Under the pieces are notes generated by a model. The model made no database searches and was not told the DNA's origin. It saw nothing but the letters and a program-made list of their open reading frames with translations. A DNA stretch of 57,836 bases from the NCBI GenBank assembly GCA_051306415.1, contig JBPPNE010000074.1:1-57836 (forward strand), read 5' to 3'. The translations under genes were made by a program, and so were the position numbers. Of this stretch, positions 18,518 to 34,128 are shown piece by piece (within the stretch, counting starts at the first letter, position 1; each line of letters opens with the position of its first letter). Source of the DNA: Porticoccaceae bacterium. GTDB taxonomy: Bacteria > Pseudomonadota > Gammaproteobacteria > Pseudomonadales > Porticoccaceae.

Positions 18518-20045
18518 GTTCCACTTCCAGTTGATGTTTCGGTTCGGGCTCAGACCGAGGTTCGGTTTTGGACTTTGCGTCGGTGGCAGAATCAGGGGCC
18601 ACTTTCGCTGCGGATTTCACTCCGGTCTCGGTCTTGGCTGCTGATTTGCCGGGTGGCGTTTTTTTCTTTGCTTCGTCTATCGACCCTATCATGTAAAGCG
18701 CGCTCTCTGGATAATCCTTGAATTCATCGCGCAAGATGCGTTCACAGCCATCCAGCGCGTCGTCGAGGCTGACAAGCTTGCCCTTGAGGCCGGTGAATTG
18801 CTCGGTGGTGAAAAACGGCTGGGTGAGAAAACGCTCCAGCAGCCGCGCGCGCCCAACCACGTTGCGGTCATCCGGCGACAGTTGCTCCAGGCCCAGCATC
18901 GCAATGATGTCTTTCAGTTCCGCGTATTGCGCGAGTGTGCGCCGAATTTCCTGCGCGAGGGCGTAGTGCCGCTCGCCGATGACGCCGGGCGTGGCCATCT
19001 TCGAACTGGACTGCAACGGGTCGATGGCCGGATACAGTCCCTCGCTGGCCCGTTTGCGCGACAGCACGATGGACGCGGAAAGGTGCGAAAAGGTATGCAC
19101 CGCCGCCGGGTCGGTGAAATCGTCCGCCGGCACATACACCGCCTGAATCGAGGTGATGGCGCCGGTATCCGTGTTGGCGATGCGCTCTTCCAGTTGCGCC
19201 AGCTCGGTGCCCATGGTCGGCTGATAGCCCAGGCGCGACGGCATCTGCCCCATCAGGCCGGATACTTCCATGCCCGCTTGAATGAAACGAAAAATATTGT
19301 CGATGAGCAATAGCACATCGCGATGCTCGTCATCGCGAAAATATTCAGCCATGGTCAGTGCCGCATGACCGACGCGAAAACGGGCGCCCGGCGGTTCATT
19401 CATCTGGCCGAAGACCATGACCATATTCTGCAGTACGCCCGCCGCTTTCATCTCACGGTAGAGTTCTTCCCCTTCGCGGCAGCGTTCGCCGATACCGCAA
19501 AATATACTCACGCCGGCGTGTTGCCCGACCATATTGTGAATCATCTCGGTGAGCAACACCGTTTTGCCCACACCCGCCCCGCCAAACAAACCGGCCTTAC
19601 CACCACGTTCCAGCGGCATGAGCACATCAATGACCTTGATGCCGGTTTCGAACAGTTCGGATTTTGTGGATCGTCGCGCCAAGGATGGTGGCGCCCGATG
19701 GACCGTGCGCCACTGGACATCCGACGGTGCTGCCTGGCGGTCGATGGTGTTGCCGAACACGTCGAACATGCGTGACAGGATTTCCTTGCCGACCGGCGCC
19801 TGCAACGGTCCGCCGCTGTCTATTACCACCATGCCACGCGCCAGTCCCTGCGTGGGGGTCAGTGCAATCCCGCGCACGCGATGTGCATCAAGCTGTGAAA
19901 ATACTTCGATTGCGATTTGATTTTCAGTCCCGGTGTGCAACAAGGAGTGTATGGGCGGCAAACGCTCGTCAAACACGATATCCACAACACTACCGCGCAC
20001 CGAGACAACCGTGCCGCAATTCGTTGAGGTGGATGGATTGTTCAT
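18492..20045 (-). CDS. atpD: N-type F1 beta subunit with a ~55-aa Lys/Pro/Glu-rich C-terminal tail
   Basis: The ATG at 20045 ([25 protein letters not shown]) overlaps the pyk stop as ATGA. Walker A motif GGAGVGKT is present. The tail [55 protein letters not shown] follows the conserved end ...[11 protein letters not shown]. Confidence 0.9.
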
Positions 20046-21490
20046 GGCTGCTTGGGCTTCACATCTGGCAGGCGAACCACCTGCATCGTATCGGCCTTGC
20101 CCTGAGATAGACTTGAGATGGCCAGCACCACGGCGAGATCGCCGGGCTGCGCCAACTGACGCGCATACAACCAGTGGCAGGCGAGAATGAGGCACGACGA
20201 CGGTTCAGCCTCCGGTGCGGCCAACAGAGGCGACACACCCCAGACCGCCGTCAACCGGCGGCGCAAATCCTCGGAGTCGGCCACCGCCACGAGCGGCGCT
20301 TGGGGTCGAAAGCGGGCAATTCCCAGCGCGGTCGCCAAGTCATGGACGGGCACGATGATGGCCTTGGCGTTGAGCCGCGCCGCGAACTGGCAGGCAACCA
20401 AGCTGATGGGATCACTCGCCAAAACCAACCCGCTCGCTTGGAGCCGGTCGTGGGCCATGCGCGCGGCGTATTCAGTTTCCGTGGCCGCGAGCACCCGCTG
20501 CAAGATTTCAGCCGCCGCCACCGGGAATCGTCCGATGGCGGTTTCCCCGGAAAGCATCACTCCGTCCGTTCCATCGAGTACGGCATTGGCGACATCCGTC
20601 ACCTCTGCGCGCGTTGGCCGTTCCTGCTCAACCATGGATTCGAGCATCTGGGTGGCGGTGATCACCGGCCGCGCCCGGGCGTTGGCCACCGCGATGATCC
20701 GTTTCTGAACCAAGGGAATCTCCGCCAGATCGGTTTCCACACCTAAATCTCCGCGGGCCACCATCACGGCATCGGCCGCCTCCACAATCGCATCGAGTTC
20801 AGCCAGGGCCTGACGTTTTTCGATCTTGGCCATCAGCAGGGGCTGAGGGCCGGGGGGCAGAAACTGGCGGACGCGCGCCAGATCGTCGGCCGACTGGACA
20901 AATGACACGCCCAGCCACTCCGCCTGTTGCGCCACGGCGAACGCCATGTGCCGGCGGTCGTCGTCCGTCGGAACGAGCGCGGTCAGTTTGGATTCCGGCA
21001 CATTGATGCCCGAACCCGATCGGACCGCGCCCCCCGTCATAACCTCACAAGTGAGCCGGTCGGCATCGAGACTCGTGATCCGCAGCCTGATCACTCCGTC
21101 CGCGAGATACAGCGATTCCCCCACGCGCAGCGCCTGAAACAACTCCCGATGCCTCACCGGCAAATCAGTTGCGACCTTGGCCTCGGCGGCCAGAATCACG
21201 GTCGCGCCCCGCTGCAGTTCACGCGAGCCGTCGGGCAGATTTCCCAGGCGAAACTTCGGCCCCGGCAAGTCAATCAGAACGGCCACGGGCTGTCCGGTCT
21301 GCCGTGCCAGTTGACGCACCTGCTGAATTCGCCGCGCGTGGTCGGTCGGATCGCCGTGCGACATGTTGCAGCGGACGATGTCCAGCCCGGCCCCGATCAG
21401 CCCTGCCAACACTCCCGGTTGATCGGTCGCAGGACCGAGTGTGCAGACGATCTTCGTCCGATGCCATGGAGGTTGGGTCATCCTTACCAT
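20042..21490 (-). CDS. pyk: pyruvate kinase
   Basis: The sequence [13 protein letters not shown]...MSHGD...[13 protein letters not shown] is typical Pyk. The start is uncertain: ATG at 21490 or 21481. The ORF-track start at 21502 is a TTG. Confidence 0.9.
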
Positions 21491-21498
21491 TTCCAGTT

Positions 21499-31921: not shown

Positions 31922-32820
31922 GGTTCAGTTCCTTTTGTATTGTGCGCCGGAATTGTGTCTGCCGGCGCTGAATGCGTTTCGTCCTGAGCGGCGGACAGGC
32001 AGGCGCCGAATATGAAAATGCTCCCGGAAAGGTAAATCCACAGCAGCAATGCCATGATCCCGCCGAACGTCCCATAGACCGCGTTTAATGTGGAAAAATT
32101 CTTGAGGTAGATCACGAATAGACTTTCGGCCGCCAGCAAGAGCGCCGTGGCGCACAGGGCGGCGACCCAGACTTCGGAAAAGCGCGTAGGCCGGCGCGGA
32201 GCCAGCCGGTAAAACAGGCTCAGACCAAAGAACAGCGCCAGCAAGGGGATGAAAAAGCTCCCCAGGGTATAGACCCAGGAACGGAAATCATTCATGGGGA
32301 ACAGCCAGTCCCTCGCCATTTGCGCCGGCATTGGCGCGCCTATGCTCAAAAGCACCACACCCGCCGTGATTCCGAGCAGCACCAGGCTTTTGAGCGGCAG
32401 CCGCCACCAACTGTACCCCTCTGTGCCCCAAGCGTGGTTGGTCGCGCTGATGAGGGTGGTGAAGCATTGCAGGGTGACCCAGACCAGGATGAGAAACGCG
32501 ATCGCCCCCGCCTGCCCACGCGCTTTGATCACGCCAGCGACGGTGTCAAAAATGTAAGCTTGCTTGTCACCACTTAGCGGGACGAAGGTTTCAACATAGG
32601 CAATGACCTCCGTTGCGGCCCGGTCCCGATCAATAAAGGCCGAGGAGATCGTGACGAGCAGGACCATCAAGGGAAACAGTGAGAAGAACGCGTTGAAGGC
32701 AAACGCTCCCGCCCACTTTGTCCCGTCGATCCGGAGAAACTTTCTGGCCGCGAGACGAAATATCGCCCATGCCTGGCGTGCTCCCTGGTTAAGCCGGTTT
32801 TGCCCATGCATCTTGCGCAC
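31918..32820 (-). CDS. YihY/BrkB family inner-membrane protein
   Basis: 300 aa polytopic protein. The N-terminus [31 protein letters not shown] is the YihY signature. It has a 4-nt overlap with the xfp start. Confidence 0.75.
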
Positions 32821-32883
32821 TCTTTCTTTGCCGACGGAGCCAGGCCTTGCTTCCTGGCCGAGCGACGATAGAGGCGGGCGGGA

Positions 32884-34128
32884 TCATTCGGCGGCGCCTA
32901 CAATCGACAGCCCGGCACTTGGCGGAACCTCGTTCTCGAGTGTTGTTTTCACTATGTTCCACACCGAGCGTGCAATCATCAGTTCTTCGTCCGTGCGCAT
33001 GACGCGGACTGCAACCCGGCTGGCCGCTGCGGAAATCACGCCGTCCTTTGCAGTATTGTGCTGCTCGTCGAGTTCGATGCCAAGAAATTCCAGGCCGACG
33101 CAAATCCGCGCGCGGACGAGAGGCGCGTTCTCTCCGATGCCGCCTGCGAACACCAGCGTATCCAATCCGCCCAGGGCCGCGGCGTAGGCGCCAATCCATT
33201 TCTTGGCCTGGTAGCAAAACAGCGCGATCGCCTCCGCCGCGCGCACGTCCTGGGTTTCACGTTCGAGCAGGTCGCGCATGTCGGAACTGGTCTCCGATAC
33301 GCCGAGCAGCCCGGACGCTTGGTTCACCATATCCTGAAATTGTGTGGCACTCATATTCTCGGTACGCGCCAGGTACGAGACCAGTCCCGGATCCAGATCT
33401 CCCGAACGACTGCTCATCACCAACCCTGATGTCGGAGTGAAGCCCATGCTGGTGTCGATGCTCTTTCCGTCGCGCACGGCGGCCAGGCTCGCACCGTTAC
33501 CGAGGTGGGCCAGGATCACACGGCCCGTGGTTGCCGCCGGGTCGCCGAGGCGGACGAGTTCTTCCATAAGGTATTCATAAGACAAGCCATGGAATCCGTA
33601 ACGGCGTACACCCGCCGCCTCGTAGCGGCGCGGAATCGGCAACAGACTGGCAACCCGCGGCATGCCGCGGTGAAACGCGGTGTCAAAACACGCCACTTGC
33701 GGCAATGATGGGTGGCGCTGGCGGATTGCCTCGATCAGTTCGATCTCCAATGGCAAATGCTCCGGGTCATACGGCGTGATGCGGTGCAGTGCGTCGAGCA
33801 ACGCTGGCGTAACCCGCTCTGGCTCGCTATGCGTCATGCCGTGCACCACCCGATGTCCCACGGCTTTAACCGAGGCAAAATCCTGCTGCGTTTCGAGCCA
33901 ATCCAGCAGAAAGGCAATCGCCGAAGCGCGATCATTGGTGTCGAGGGTGTGGCTGTCCTGTAATTTCCCGGTAGCGTCCGTGAAACTCAAATTCGTGCCG
34001 CTCAGGCCAATACGATCAAGCTTCCCATGAAGCCCTCGTTGCAGCGATTCGCCTGTACGAAACAACGCGAACTTGATGCTCGACGAACCGCCGTTGATCG
34101 TCAGAATGTACGAGTCGGTGGATTTCAT
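32884..34128 (-). CDS. ackA: acetate kinase
   Basis: 414 aa. ILTINGGSSSIKFALF, HRVVHG and GFHGLSYEY are present. Confidence 0.9.
   Translation of the reverse strand: MKSTDSYILTINGGSSSIKFALFRTGESLQRGLHGKLDRIGLSGTNLSFTDATGKLQDSHTLDTNDRASAIAFLLDWLETQQDFASVKAVGHRVVHGMTHSEPERVTPALLDALHRITPYDPEHLPLEIELIEAIRQRHPSLPQVACFDTAFHRGMPRVASLLPIPRRYEAAGVRRYGFHGLSYEYLMEELVRLGDPAATTGRVILAHLGNGASLAAVRDGKSIDTSMGFTPTSGLVMSSRSGDLDPGLVSYLARTENMSATQFQDMVNQASGLLGVSETSSDMRDLLERETQDVRAAEAIALFCYQAKKWIGAYAAALGGLDTLVFAGGIGENAPLVRARICVGLEFLGIELDEQHNTAKDGVISAAASRVAVRVMRTDEELMIARSVWNIVKTTLENEVPPSAGLSIVGAAE

Follow-up and report, generated by a model that had tools for sequence, protein, structure and literature searches.

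The N-ATPase, a family of rotary ATPases, was defined in 2010 and its function is still called 'presumed' in a paper of 2025 (PMC11738941). It was argued to be an ATP-driven pump, and the family was found to be laterally transferred and sometimes plasmid-borne (PMC2881411). In the proteome of Nitrospira marina several N-ATPase subunits were up at low O2, for which the authors suggested an adaptation to starvation (PMC8115632). Balon is a ribosome hibernation factor which is mostly encoded beside RaiA and whose mycobacterial homologues are induced by hypoxia (PMC10901736), and the gene neighbourhood of baeRF-1 and HPF was described by Burroughs & Aravind 2019 (PMC6514570). Among gene sets for persistence, the lxa locus of Burkholderia cenocepacia contains genes for acetate kinase, a cation-transporting P-type ATPase and storage polymers along with an Anr/Crp-type regulator (PMC3721108, Sass et al. 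2013), and the DosR regulon of mycobacterial dormancy includes the Balon homologue Rv2629 and the RaiA-type factor Rv0079 (PMC10901736). Here, contig JBPPNE010000074.1 of a Porticoccaceae bacterium (GenBank assembly GCA_051306415.1) was analyzed over its whole length of 57,836 bases, which is called the window throughout. Its left 34 kb possesses a complete N-ATPase operon with a Balon-like gene and an HPF gene inside it, surrounded by genes of phosphoketolase (Xfp), acetate kinase (AckA), polyphosphate kinase PPK2, membrane proteins and sugar-phosphate enzymes. This left part is probably, if by no means certainly, an enlarged and rearranged copy of a horizontally spreading modular block which would support survival by the mechanism proposed below.

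The contig has a G+C content of ~60%, ranging from 0.55 to 0.68 along its length without a clear boundary, and its genes are nearly all on the minus strand. The genes were identified by Pfam scans of long open reading frames (ORFs). In the direction of transcription, AckA is followed by a YihY/BrkB-family membrane protein, Xfp, a DUF2254 membrane protein, PPK2, a BON-MscS channel, the antiporter NhaA, pyruvate kinase (Pyk) and the complete N-ATPase operon, and then by the carbon genes encoding a histidine phosphatase, class I fructose-bisphosphate aldolase (Fba), phosphoglucomutase (Pgm), transketolase (Tkt), a GH94 protein and a PF10091 protein. The packing of the genes is operon-like: the stop codon of one gene overlaps the start of the next at 5829/5832, 9631/9634, 13729/13732, 15378/15381, 29549/29556 and 31918/31921, and terminators were predicted no more often than in shuffled sequence. 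An earlier note on this DNA had read the left 34 kb as one low-energy survival system and had cited the span 20042-34128 for it. The Pfam scans placed all the genes it named within 441-34128 of the minus strand; the cited span holds pyk to ackA only, and the N-ATPase, hibernation and other carbon genes lie to the left of it, at 441-20195. The N-ATPase operon and the two hibernation genes within it are as follows.

11299-20195, minus strand: N-ATPase operon, complete (Pfam and NCBIfam)
18492-20195, minus strand: N-ATPase beta, extent of the ORF, true start probably at 19916-20195 (NCBIfam alt_F1F0_F1_bet 849.5 bits, cut-off 752)
18113-18517, minus strand: N-ATPase epsilon (Pfam ATP-synt_DE_N)
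17788-18120, minus strand: AtpQ, ATPase gene 1 (NCBIfam ATPase_gene1 143.7 bits, cut-off 46.7)
17481-17873, minus strand: AtpR, the N-ATPase hallmark (Pfam AtpR 2e-29; NCBIfam F1F0_chp_2 101.5 bits, cut-off 55.5)
16790-17491, minus strand: N-ATPase a (NCBIfam altF1_A 381 bits, cut-off 302)
16478-16759, minus strand: N-ATPase c (NCBIfam alt_F1F0_F0_C 163.8 bits, cut-off 130.85)
15378-16475, minus strand: N-ATPase b/delta fusion (Pfam ATP-synt_B, OSCP, DUF2934; NCBIfam alt_F1F0_F0_B)
13729-15381, minus strand: N-ATPase alpha (NCBIfam alt_F1F0_F1_al 932 bits, cut-off 750.5)
12578-13732, minus strand: Balon homologue of baeRF_family3, earlier called 'eRF1-like' (Pfam baeRF_family3 4e-50)
12229-12540, minus strand: short HPF/RaiA-type protein (Pfam Ribosomal_S30AE 39.3 bits, cut-off 23.7; PDB 7m4z_v 1e-21)
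11299-12189, minus strand: N-ATPase gamma (NCBIfam alt_F1F0_F1_gam 452 bits, cut-off 282)

The eight N-ATPase subunits for which NCBIfam models are available (all but epsilon) exceed the curated cut-offs, and alpha, beta, gamma, a, b and c each score higher on the alt_F1F0 models than on the F-type models. By their profile scores the subunits were assigned to the N-type rather than the F-type clade. As in the operon of Dibrova, Galperin & Mulkidjanian 2010 (PMC2881411), all nine genes are present in canonical order, AtpR and AtpQ are among them, b is fused to delta, and the c subunit has Na+ ligands. The order beta, epsilon, AtpQ, AtpR, a, c, b, alpha, Balon homologue, HPF, gamma corresponds to atpDCQRBEFAG plus a two-gene insertion, and it is these two hibernation genes between atpA (alpha) and atpG (gamma) which distinguish the window from the published operon. 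The window further differs by a DUF2934 tail on the b subunit and by recurrent Xfp/AckA/DUF2254/PPK2 surroundings, which are not described in the N-ATPase papers examined. In N-ATPase operons of Cyanothece, Dibrova et al. mentioned two inserted genes for which they had no explanation (PMC2881411), and these may be the Balon-HPF pair.

In the b subunit, ATP-synt_B covers residues 8-137 and OSCP 178-243, and a separate delta gene (atpH) is absent from the window. The C-terminus of b carries the DUF2934 domain followed by a Lys/Glu/Pro-rich tail, and the same fusion is found in L171 and L174 (loci of other genomes are given here by L numbers). DUF2934 is also present as a free small ORF at ~54600-54750, in the spacer from MerR to a P1B ATPase gene, and elsewhere it is joined to a transposase-like gene in L175 and stands alone beside MerR on a Methylophaga plasmid. 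When the c subunit was aligned to that of Ilyobacter tartaricus, E65, S66, T67 and Y70 were found to be kept along with a Q32->E change, a pattern of ligands which Dibrova et al. read as Na+ binding (PMC2881411). Judged from the alignment, the Na+ ligand set is full.

The predicted eRF1-like protein aligned along its entire length with the Balon of Psychrobacter urativorans (8rd8_B; phmmer, residues 12-379 to 7-364, E 7e-18), and GGQ and NIKS motifs are absent from its sequence. By this alignment it is a distant homologue of the hibernation factor Balon. It has more than 7300 homologues at E <= 1e-10, and its closest relatives come from metagenome-assembled genomes (MAGs) of Rhodocyclaceae, with 96-97% identity. 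The short HPF has 103 amino acids and no dimerisation domain, and scores 32.3 bits on NCBIfam yfiA, under the cut-off of 40.9. The two genes resemble the published Balon-RaiA pair (PMC10901736, PMC6514570) in the aeRF1-like protein without GGQ/NIKS that aligns full-length to Balon, in the HPF/RaiA neighbour and in their lateral spread. In contrast, the window protein is far from the studied Balon and belongs to an orthologue group of its own, 63-96% identical across phyla, and the published Balon neighbourhoods contain chaperones, OsmC/Y, HdeD, RtcB and efflux genes but no rotary ATPase, phosphoketolase or PPK2 (PMC10901736). ATPase and phosphoketolase are unmentioned in the Balon papers.

Genes for carbon, ATP and polyphosphate metabolism lie on both sides of the operon.

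32884-34128, minus strand: AckA, acetate kinase (Pfam Acetate_kinase 1e-115)
29549-31921, minus strand: Xfp, phosphoketolase (Pfam XFP_N, XFP, XFP_C 1e-182)
27169-28044, minus strand: PPK2, most like class III (Pfam PPK2; NCBIfam NF042973 ADP-polyphosphate phosphotransferase 521 bits, cut-off 450)
20042-21502, minus strand: Pyk, pyruvate kinase (Pfam PK, PK_C)
10703-11299, minus strand: histidine-phosphatase family protein, candidate sugar-bisphosphate phosphatase (Pfam His_Phos_1)
9631-10755, minus strand: Fba, class I fructose-bisphosphate aldolase (Pfam Glycolytic 6e-143)
7988-9634, minus strand: Pgm, phosphoglucomutase (Pfam PGM_PMM I-IV)
5829-7949, minus strand: Tkt, transketolase (Pfam Transketolase_N, Transket_pyr, Transketolase_C)
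1918-5832, minus strand: stand-alone GH94 protein (phmmer against 8rf9_A residues 1532-2787, 1050 bits)
441-1739, minus strand: GH144-family, endo-beta-1,2-glucanase-like protein (Pfam PF10091; PDB 8xul 4e-125, 5gzh 9e-40)

Xfp cleaves xylulose 5-phosphate (X5P) or fructose 6-phosphate (F6P) with phosphate to acetyl-phosphate, and AckA converts acetyl-phosphate and ADP to acetate and ATP; the route formed by the two enzymes is already known. As in the bifid shunt and in synthetic non-oxidative glycolysis, the latter reportedly from Bogorad et al. 2013, the window unites the genes of Xfp, AckA, Tkt and Fba with that of a candidate sugar-bisphosphatase, and a version on a Polymorphobacter plasmid adds Tal, Rpe, RpiA and Pgi. 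Unlike that pathway, the window genes are physically joined to a putatively ATP-consuming ion pump, PPK2 and hibernation factors. The histidine phosphatase matched Mycobacterium tuberculosis Gpm2 (2a6p, 1e-39) and yeast YKR043C (7e-27) in the PDB, the second of which we take to be the sedoheptulose bisphosphatase Shb17, and relatives of its gene stand beside Xfp or Fba in L001, L028, L042 and L080. PPK2 is a single-domain protein with PDB matches to class III 6an9/6au0 (7e-80), to 5lc9 (4e-61) and to class I 3czq and 5ll0 (1e-25 to 1e-30). By these matches it is closest to class III, for which polyphosphate-driven phosphorylation of AMP and ADP would be predicted.

The GH94 protein matches the C-terminal GH94 phosphorylase part of cyclic beta-1,2-glucan synthase (Cgs/NdvB). 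The glucan phosphorylase and glucanase of the earlier note are both present and, by the GH94/GH144 matches, of the beta-1,2-glucan type; a glycogen-type reading of the phosphorylase was rejected on the same matches. The module looks beta-1,2-glucan specific. The GH144 gene has a paralogue at 45018-46319 (76% identical protein, ~81% DNA) in the same orientation 44.6 kb apart, and the two copies, which bracket most of the contig, could be recombination substrates.

Four genes for integral membrane proteins are placed among those of ATP metabolism.

31918-32820, minus strand: YihY/BrkB-family membrane protein (Pfam Virul_fac_BrkB 6e-46)
28210-29556, minus strand: DUF2254 membrane protein, intact copy (Pfam DUF2254 1e-122)
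24052-25788, minus strand: BON-domain MscS-type mechanosensitive channel (Pfam BON, MS_channel_2nd, MS_channel_3rd)
22349-23908, minus strand: NhaA Na+/H+ antiporter (Pfam Na_H_antiport_1 3e-146)

Recurrence of the gene set in other genomes was followed from three anchors: the Balon homologue (baeRF3), N-ATPase gamma (metagenome contigs) and DUF2254 (long contigs). At least 583 of 600 candidate stretches from a one-genome-per-species collection encode a relative of the Balon homologue. All window proteins were compared by tblastn with the best 80 of these loci (mean 13.5 kb), which share 63-96% identity and come from Proteobacteria, Nitrospirota, Acidobacteriota, Planctomycetota, Actinomycetota, Chloroflexota, Gemmatimonadota, Verrucomicrobiota, Desulfobacterota and Cyanobacteria. 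HPF was present in 55 of the 80, in each adjoining baeRF3, followed by Xfp and DUF2254 (15 each), the N-ATPase genes (12-15), PPK2 (10), P2-type ATPase (8, at 30-43% identity, with a further one in L086), Fba, AckA and P1B ATPase (7 each), BON-MscS (4), YihY (3, at 58-68% identity), histidine phosphatase (3), NhaA (2), and Pyk and Tkt (1 each). By our own estimate, chance would place a single-copy gene of a 4-Mb genome within 10 kb of the anchor in ~0.4 of 80 loci, and the gene grouping is far beyond this. Control genes of the window (MerR, CFA synthase, PEMT, TPM and transposases) were found in none of the 80 loci. Package genes are nearly all on the strand of the anchor, and unbiased clustering of neighbouring ORFs gave the same ranking. 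It also brought out families which are absent from the window, namely the VIT1 iron/manganese transporter (6 loci), an M50-CBS protease (6) and tandem universal stress proteins (4 of 80). One or more package genes were present in 25 of the 38 N-ATPase-gamma metagenome loci whose flank outside the operon reached 3 kb or more. The test set beforehand for the 34-kb proposal was whether xfp-ackA-ppk2-N-ATPase-hpf would co-occur in synteny in other genomes, and this is clearly borne out.

The most compact arrangement was seen in a Thiobacillus MAG (L171), where PGM-GlgP-AckA-Xfp-DUF2254-beta-epsilon-Q-R-a-c-b-alpha-HPF-gamma-PPK2 occupies ~17 kb of one strand between unrelated flanking genes. L172 contains Xfp-DUF2254-N-ATPase(HPF)-PPK2, without AckA/GlgP, between toxin-antitoxin and defence genes; L174 reads isoamylase...AckA-Xfp-YflT-DUF2254-N-ATPase-Na/H exchanger-PPK2; L175 has an integrase fragment, DUF2254-N-ATPase-Na/H exchanger and then a transposase; and L173 has DUF2254 without the package. 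In L085 (Phycisphaeraceae, Planctomycetota), AckA~Xfp-DUF2254-N-ATPase carries baeRF3-HPF between alpha and gamma, as the window does. The order in L086 (Planctomycetota) is PMI-PMM-GH130-AckA-Xfp-DUF2254-baeRF3-HPF-Fba-Na/H exchanger-P2 ATPase-K+ channel-PPK2-IS66, in which a Na/H exchanger and a P2-type ATPase take the place of the rotary pump and PMI-PMM-GH130 that of the glucan module. DUF2254 usually lies between Xfp and N-ATPase beta, directly upstream of beta in L085, L171, L172, L174 and L175. AckA adjoins Xfp in L085, L086, L171 and L174, and PPK2 directly follows N-ATPase gamma in many loci. Xfp was also found in 5 N-ATPase loci, with identity up to 91% over all loci, and Fba in 3. 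PGM is beside a glucan phosphorylase in L171, L088 and L001. A 90% identical BON-MscS is directly upstream of N-ATPase beta in L091. NhaA is not a conserved member, and a Na_H_Exchanger family protein is found instead in L086, L174 and L175. The recurrent core comprises Xfp/AckA, DUF2254, PPK2, class I Fba, HPF (in some loci accompanied by Balon) and the N-ATPase, for which a P2-type ATPase plus a Na+/H+ exchanger can stand in, and the block is present in MAGs and genomes including Nitrospira, Thiobacillus, Nitrotoga, Acidobacteriota and Planctomycetota. Named strains among the candidate carriers are Thiocapsa imhoffii DSM 21303 (L006), Ectothiorhodospira lacustris B14B (L074) and Desulfobulbus sp. 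Tol-SR (L028).

Variants are also carried on plasmids. A Methylophaga plasmid reads CFA synthase, ICMT, His-phosphatase-Xfp-AckA-GlgP-Tkt-Pgi-Pgm-isoamylase-Fba-P1B ATPase-PPK2-DUF2934-MerR, with no N-ATPase in the stretch examined. On the Polymorphobacter plasmid, a full phosphoketolase and pentose-phosphate gene set, Tkt-Zwf-Rpe-AckA-Gnd-Tal-Pgi-RpiA-Xfp-Fba, is divergent from the N-ATPase; a Hymenobacter plasmid (L088, CP014769) has TPI-N-ATPase-PGM-GlgP; and a Legionella plasmid has the N-ATPase with Pta-AckA ~8 kb downstream. Balon is lacking in all these three. The N-ATPase of Legionella anisa plasmid NZ_CP082853 (L087, 78-9280) is preceded by genes of the thymidine-phosphorylase family and of ribose-phosphate pyrophosphokinase, which we suspect to serve the salvage of nucleosides or AMP into sugar phosphates. 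On CP014769 a hydrogenase cluster with hyp maturation genes is situated ~9 kb from the N-ATPase block.

The window copy is a mosaic, with gene fragments at the junctions of its cassettes. These were detected by self-comparison of the window (tblastn), a repeat search and the Pfam scan.

28083-28181, minus strand: xfp 3' fragment between DUF2254 and PPK2 (tblastn, Xfp residues 718-750, 61%; Pfam XFP_C in ORF 28041-28511)
26880-27242, minus strand: class I fba 5' fragment after PPK2 (Pfam Glycolytic profile positions 3-83 only)
25769-26383, minus strand: DUF2254 C-terminal fragment, second copy, upstream of BON-MscS (Pfam DUF2254 profile positions 226-367 only)
23863-24030, minus strand: DUF2254 fragment just upstream of nhaA (tblastn, 43-45% identity over 56 residues)
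21487-21699, minus strand: xfp 3' fragment directly upstream of pyk (tblastn, Xfp residues 715-785, 62% identity)

As the fragments belong to the gene families of the package, the inserted cassettes seem to derive from other versions of it. The C-terminal DUF2254 fragment has 77% protein identity to the intact copy (82% over 300 nt), and the fba fragment is 34% identical to the window's own Fba. A DUF2254-NhaA order is present in L111, and an Xfp-Pyk arrangement in none of the loci examined. Similar scars are seen in relatives: in Thiocapsa imhoffii (L006), baeRF3-HPF-DUF2254-BON-MscS is preceded by a 3' fragment of atpA, and a Rhodocyclaceae MAG (L005) has Xfp-baeRF3-HPF and then an orphan gamma. 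Identity to single relatives shifts abruptly along the operon, beta being 81% and a 96% identical to those of L091. Near the xfp fragment upstream of pyk, 21711-21753 is a 43-nt copy (86%) of the N-ATPase beta segment 19628-19670, another recombination scrap. The adjoining spacer from the xfp fragment to nhaA (21739-22348, 610 nt) contains overlapping, putatively coding ORFs of 56-71 amino acids, very rich in Lys/Arg/Pro, for which no family match was obtained.

The lateral mobility claimed in the earlier note is supported by protein identities of 60-90% across phyla, plasmid variants, neighbouring integrase, insertion sequence (IS) and toxin-antitoxin genes, and the recombination scars. The window has IS genes at 47709-48779 and 56678-57487, and neither a tRNA gene nor repeats, flanking or inverted, were found in it; its relatives adjoin integrase fragments, IS66 and toxin-antitoxin genes. 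In PLSDB the 24-kb core had no close DNA match, the best being the Methylophaga plasmid with 17% coverage and 77% identity, and plasmid homologues of the Balon-like gene had only <31% identity. No viral contig encoding a relative of this gene was found. Gene identities, family memberships, operon-like packing, recurrence across phyla and the mosaic history are established by these observations.

The compact form of the block would be a glycan phosphorylase with phosphoglucomutase, AckA, Xfp, DUF2254, the N-ATPase operon with HPF and with or without the Balon homologue between alpha and gamma, and PPK2. From it we propose a mechanism of five steps, in which we infer the way the flux runs, what the phosphatase acts on, the signal that induces the genes and the benefit for survival. 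Stored glucan would be split by phosphorolysis at no ATP cost, here beta-1,2-glucan by GH144 and GH94 and in other versions glycogen (GlgP) or mannosides (GH130), and glucose-1-phosphate would enter the sugar-phosphate pool through Pgm. Phosphoketolase would then cleave F6P or X5P with phosphate to acetyl-phosphate, and Tkt, class I aldolase and the Shb17-like histidine phosphatase may recycle the remaining carbon as in 'non-oxidative glycolysis', so that little or no NAD(P)H would have to be re-oxidised. AckA would make ATP from acetyl-phosphate, and the class III-like PPK2 would recharge AMP and ADP from polyphosphate. The N-ATPase, presumably acting as a pump and not as a synthase, would spend this ATP in pumping Na+ out and, with Na+/H+ antiporters, P-type ATPases and the MscS channel, could maintain the membrane potential and the balance of ions at times when respiration is unable to do so. 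Finally, ribosomes would be parked by the short HPF and the Balon homologue co-transcribed with it, and the largest ATP sink would be removed.

Survival of anoxia or starvation is suggested by the established functions of the enzymes, by the low-O2 report on N. marina (PMC8115632) and by analogy. The lxa locus and the DosR regulon are likewise sets of co-located or co-regulated genes for persistence of obligate aerobes without oxygen. They differ from the window in several respects. Terms for phosphoketolase, polyphosphate and ribosomes are absent from the text of the lxa paper, and its sole mention of an ATPase is the P-type cation pump (PMC3721108); universal stress proteins, alpha-crystallin and the regulator of those systems are absent from the window; and co-induction at low oxygen was shown for lxa and DosR and would be a prediction for the window block. 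In its most far-reaching form, AckA-Xfp-DUF2254-N-ATPase(HPF with or without Balon)-PPK2 would be a self-contained transferable 'maintenance-energy and dormancy' cassette, with which strict respirers (nitrite, sulfur and iron oxidisers) outlast lack of electron acceptors on glucan and polyphosphate, through a redox-neutral phosphoketolase route with ATP going to a Na+-pumping N-ATPase and ribosomes silenced by Balon/HPF. This we offer tentatively, as a possibility somewhat below even chance.

Several observations weigh against this proposal. The gene set is modular and not fixed, and its composition varies; Pyk, NhaA, Tkt, Pgm, GH94 and GH144 are rare or were never seen elsewhere. The earlier picture of one system of 34 kb is an overstatement in this respect, and its 34-kb boundary is arbitrary. 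P2-type ATPases, which that picture left outside, are recurrent partners. Of 72 loci with the baeRF3-HPF pair, 28 hold no package gene. The alpha-gamma junction was uninterrupted in 49 of 52 cases and held HPF alone in 3, with 2 further loci reading baeRF3-HPF-gamma, so the hibernation insert is a minority form of the N-ATPase operon. The N-ATPase of the cyanobacterial plasmid pAQ7 has none of the package neighbours. DUF2254, the most faithful neighbour, has no assigned function, and its AlphaFold2 model (mean predicted local distance difference test score, pLDDT, 70.5) did not match any fold of the PDB at E <= 0.001. The recycling scheme needs Rpe, Rpi, Tpi and Pgi, and the window encodes neither these nor Tal.

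Regulation speaks on the same side. Neither the window nor the upstream regions of package genes revealed a common promoter, terminator, FNR, CRP or sigma-54 motif, and no regulator gene was found in the left 34 kb. Scans of the window for sigma-70 promoters and terminators gave counts at or below shuffled expectation, sigma-54 matches were below expectation, and FNR-box matches (26 against ~14 expected) are almost all inside genes. The shared regulator motif for which the earlier note proposed a search upstream of the units was not detected, and FNR and CRP boxes upstream of package genes were absent in ~160 loci by an admittedly crude test. A Crp/Fnr-type gene was found only in the relatives L005 and L007, and PAS-kinase genes likewise only in relatives. 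In L005, the closest Rhodocyclaceae relative, the package is flanked at 3343-6863 and 14802-16431 by a Crp/Fnr-type regulator, PAS hybrid histidine kinases and a protein that joins a response regulator to GGDEF. In L174 a PAS kinase follows PPK2 from 21078. All these are candidate regulators without a counterpart in the window.

Three other explanations were weighed. The genes may form a salt/alkali stress island, in which Na+ extrusion and osmotic protection were selected, Xfp, AckA and PPK2 only fuel the pump, HPF and Balon are stress passengers, and the trigger is ionic and not energy limitation. We regard this as unlikely. It would fit the complete Na+ ligand set of the c subunit, the NhaA or Na_H_Exchanger genes and the K+-channel-like gene which recur beside the ATPase, and the BON-MscS gene of L091, which immediately precedes the N-ATPase; marine and high-salt bacteria were argued to benefit from acquiring an operon for Na+ extrusion (Dibrova et al., PMC2881411), and haloalkalitolerant Nitrospira are reported to carry the N-ATPase (PMC7784846). 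However, the tight linkage to a redox-neutral ATP source, the use of polyphosphate and the two hibernation factors are left unexplained by it, the N-ATPase subunits of N. marina rose at low O2 (PMC8115632), and the loci come from Thiobacillus, Nitrospira and Acidobacteriota MAGs with no single obviously saline lineage, judged by taxon.

The block could also be no functional unit at all, only a recombination hot spot in which the 'package' consists of neighbours hitch-hiking in repeated horizontal transfer. The cassette junctions with at least 5 gene fragments, the mosaic identity even within the ATPase operon, the IS elements, metal-resistance region and HMA-domain gene array next door, and the differing gene content of the loci are all in keeping with this. 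Yet the scars themselves derive from other copies of the same package, and the same families are co-oriented and tightly packed in at least 8 phyla, in different orders and with different representatives (GlgP/GH94/GH130; N-ATPase/P2 ATPase; NhaA/Na_H_Exchanger). Such varied orders and representatives across phyla point to selection for the combined functions and not to one hitch-hiking event, and we find the hot-spot explanation improbable. Equally hard to credit is anaerobic substrate uptake of the type known from polyphosphate- and glycogen-accumulating organisms, in which polyphosphate and glucan would give ATP, AckA would activate acetate and the N-ATPase gradient would drive acetate or phosphate transport in a Rhodocyclaceae-like host under anoxic/oxic cycling. 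The nearest relatives of the Balon homologue are indeed the Rhodocyclaceae MAGs (96-97% identity), PPK2, a glucan-degrading module and AckA are all in the window, and AckA-Pta is linked with polyhydroxyalkanoate (PHA) genes in the lxa locus and in the variant on the Legionella plasmid. But the window lacks pta and genes for PHA synthase and for acetate or phosphate transporters, AckA consistently goes together with Xfp, whose product is acetyl-phosphate, and hibernation factors are ill-suited to an actively storing cell.

The N-ATPase operon with its lateral transfer (PMC2881411), the pairing of baeRF-1/Balon with HPF (PMC6514570, PMC10901736), lxa (PMC3721108) and the gene sets of DosR are already published. 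What appears to be new here is a putative gene set of the anoxia/starvation-persistence type built around the N-ATPase. The earlier note held the combination to be uncharacterised, and this stands: in the library searched, no paper was found which links 'N-ATPase' with phosphoketolase, PPK2, Balon or other hibernation factors, and none on xfp-ppk2 linkage. If the cassette reading is true, the N-ATPase would gain a long-missing physiological role, and DUF2254 would belong to it as an integral partner, which might help in its assembly, regulate it or conduct acetate or phosphate. The conserved partnership with a respiration-free ATP source, a polyphosphate-to-ATP enzyme and hibernation factors makes N-ATPase function directly testable and physically links ribosome hibernation (Balon/HPF) to cellular energy and ion maintenance. 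How the carriers survive anoxic or starved periods is of importance to wastewater treatment and to the cycling of nitrogen and sulfur. The 17-kb one-strand version in L171 is small enough for transfer and testing.

To the right of the 34 kb, the contig contains DUF302, two P1B-type ATPases, a P2-type ATPase, an array of HMA-domain genes, CFA synthase, a PEMT/ICMT methyltransferase, MerR and the two IS elements.

34263-34652, minus strand: DUF302 protein (Pfam DUF302)
39285-42617, minus strand: P2-type cation ATPase with an N-terminal HMA domain (Pfam Cation_ATPase_N, Cation_ATPase_C, E1-E2_ATPase, HMA)

DUF302 is an occasional neighbour elsewhere (L018, L019 and L173). The HMA-domain gene array extends over 37569-44306, with a further part at 46402-46656, and has a 300-nt unit repeated six times at 68-91% identity. 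Eight HMA paralogues are situated around and upstream of the P2-type ATPase, for which a fusion with HMA is unusual. The spacer at 54565-55355, from MerR to the P1B ATPase, contains unannotated small ORFs, one of which has a CxxC motif (TCDCCNKW) that we take to be typical of DUF411-type metal-binding proteins.

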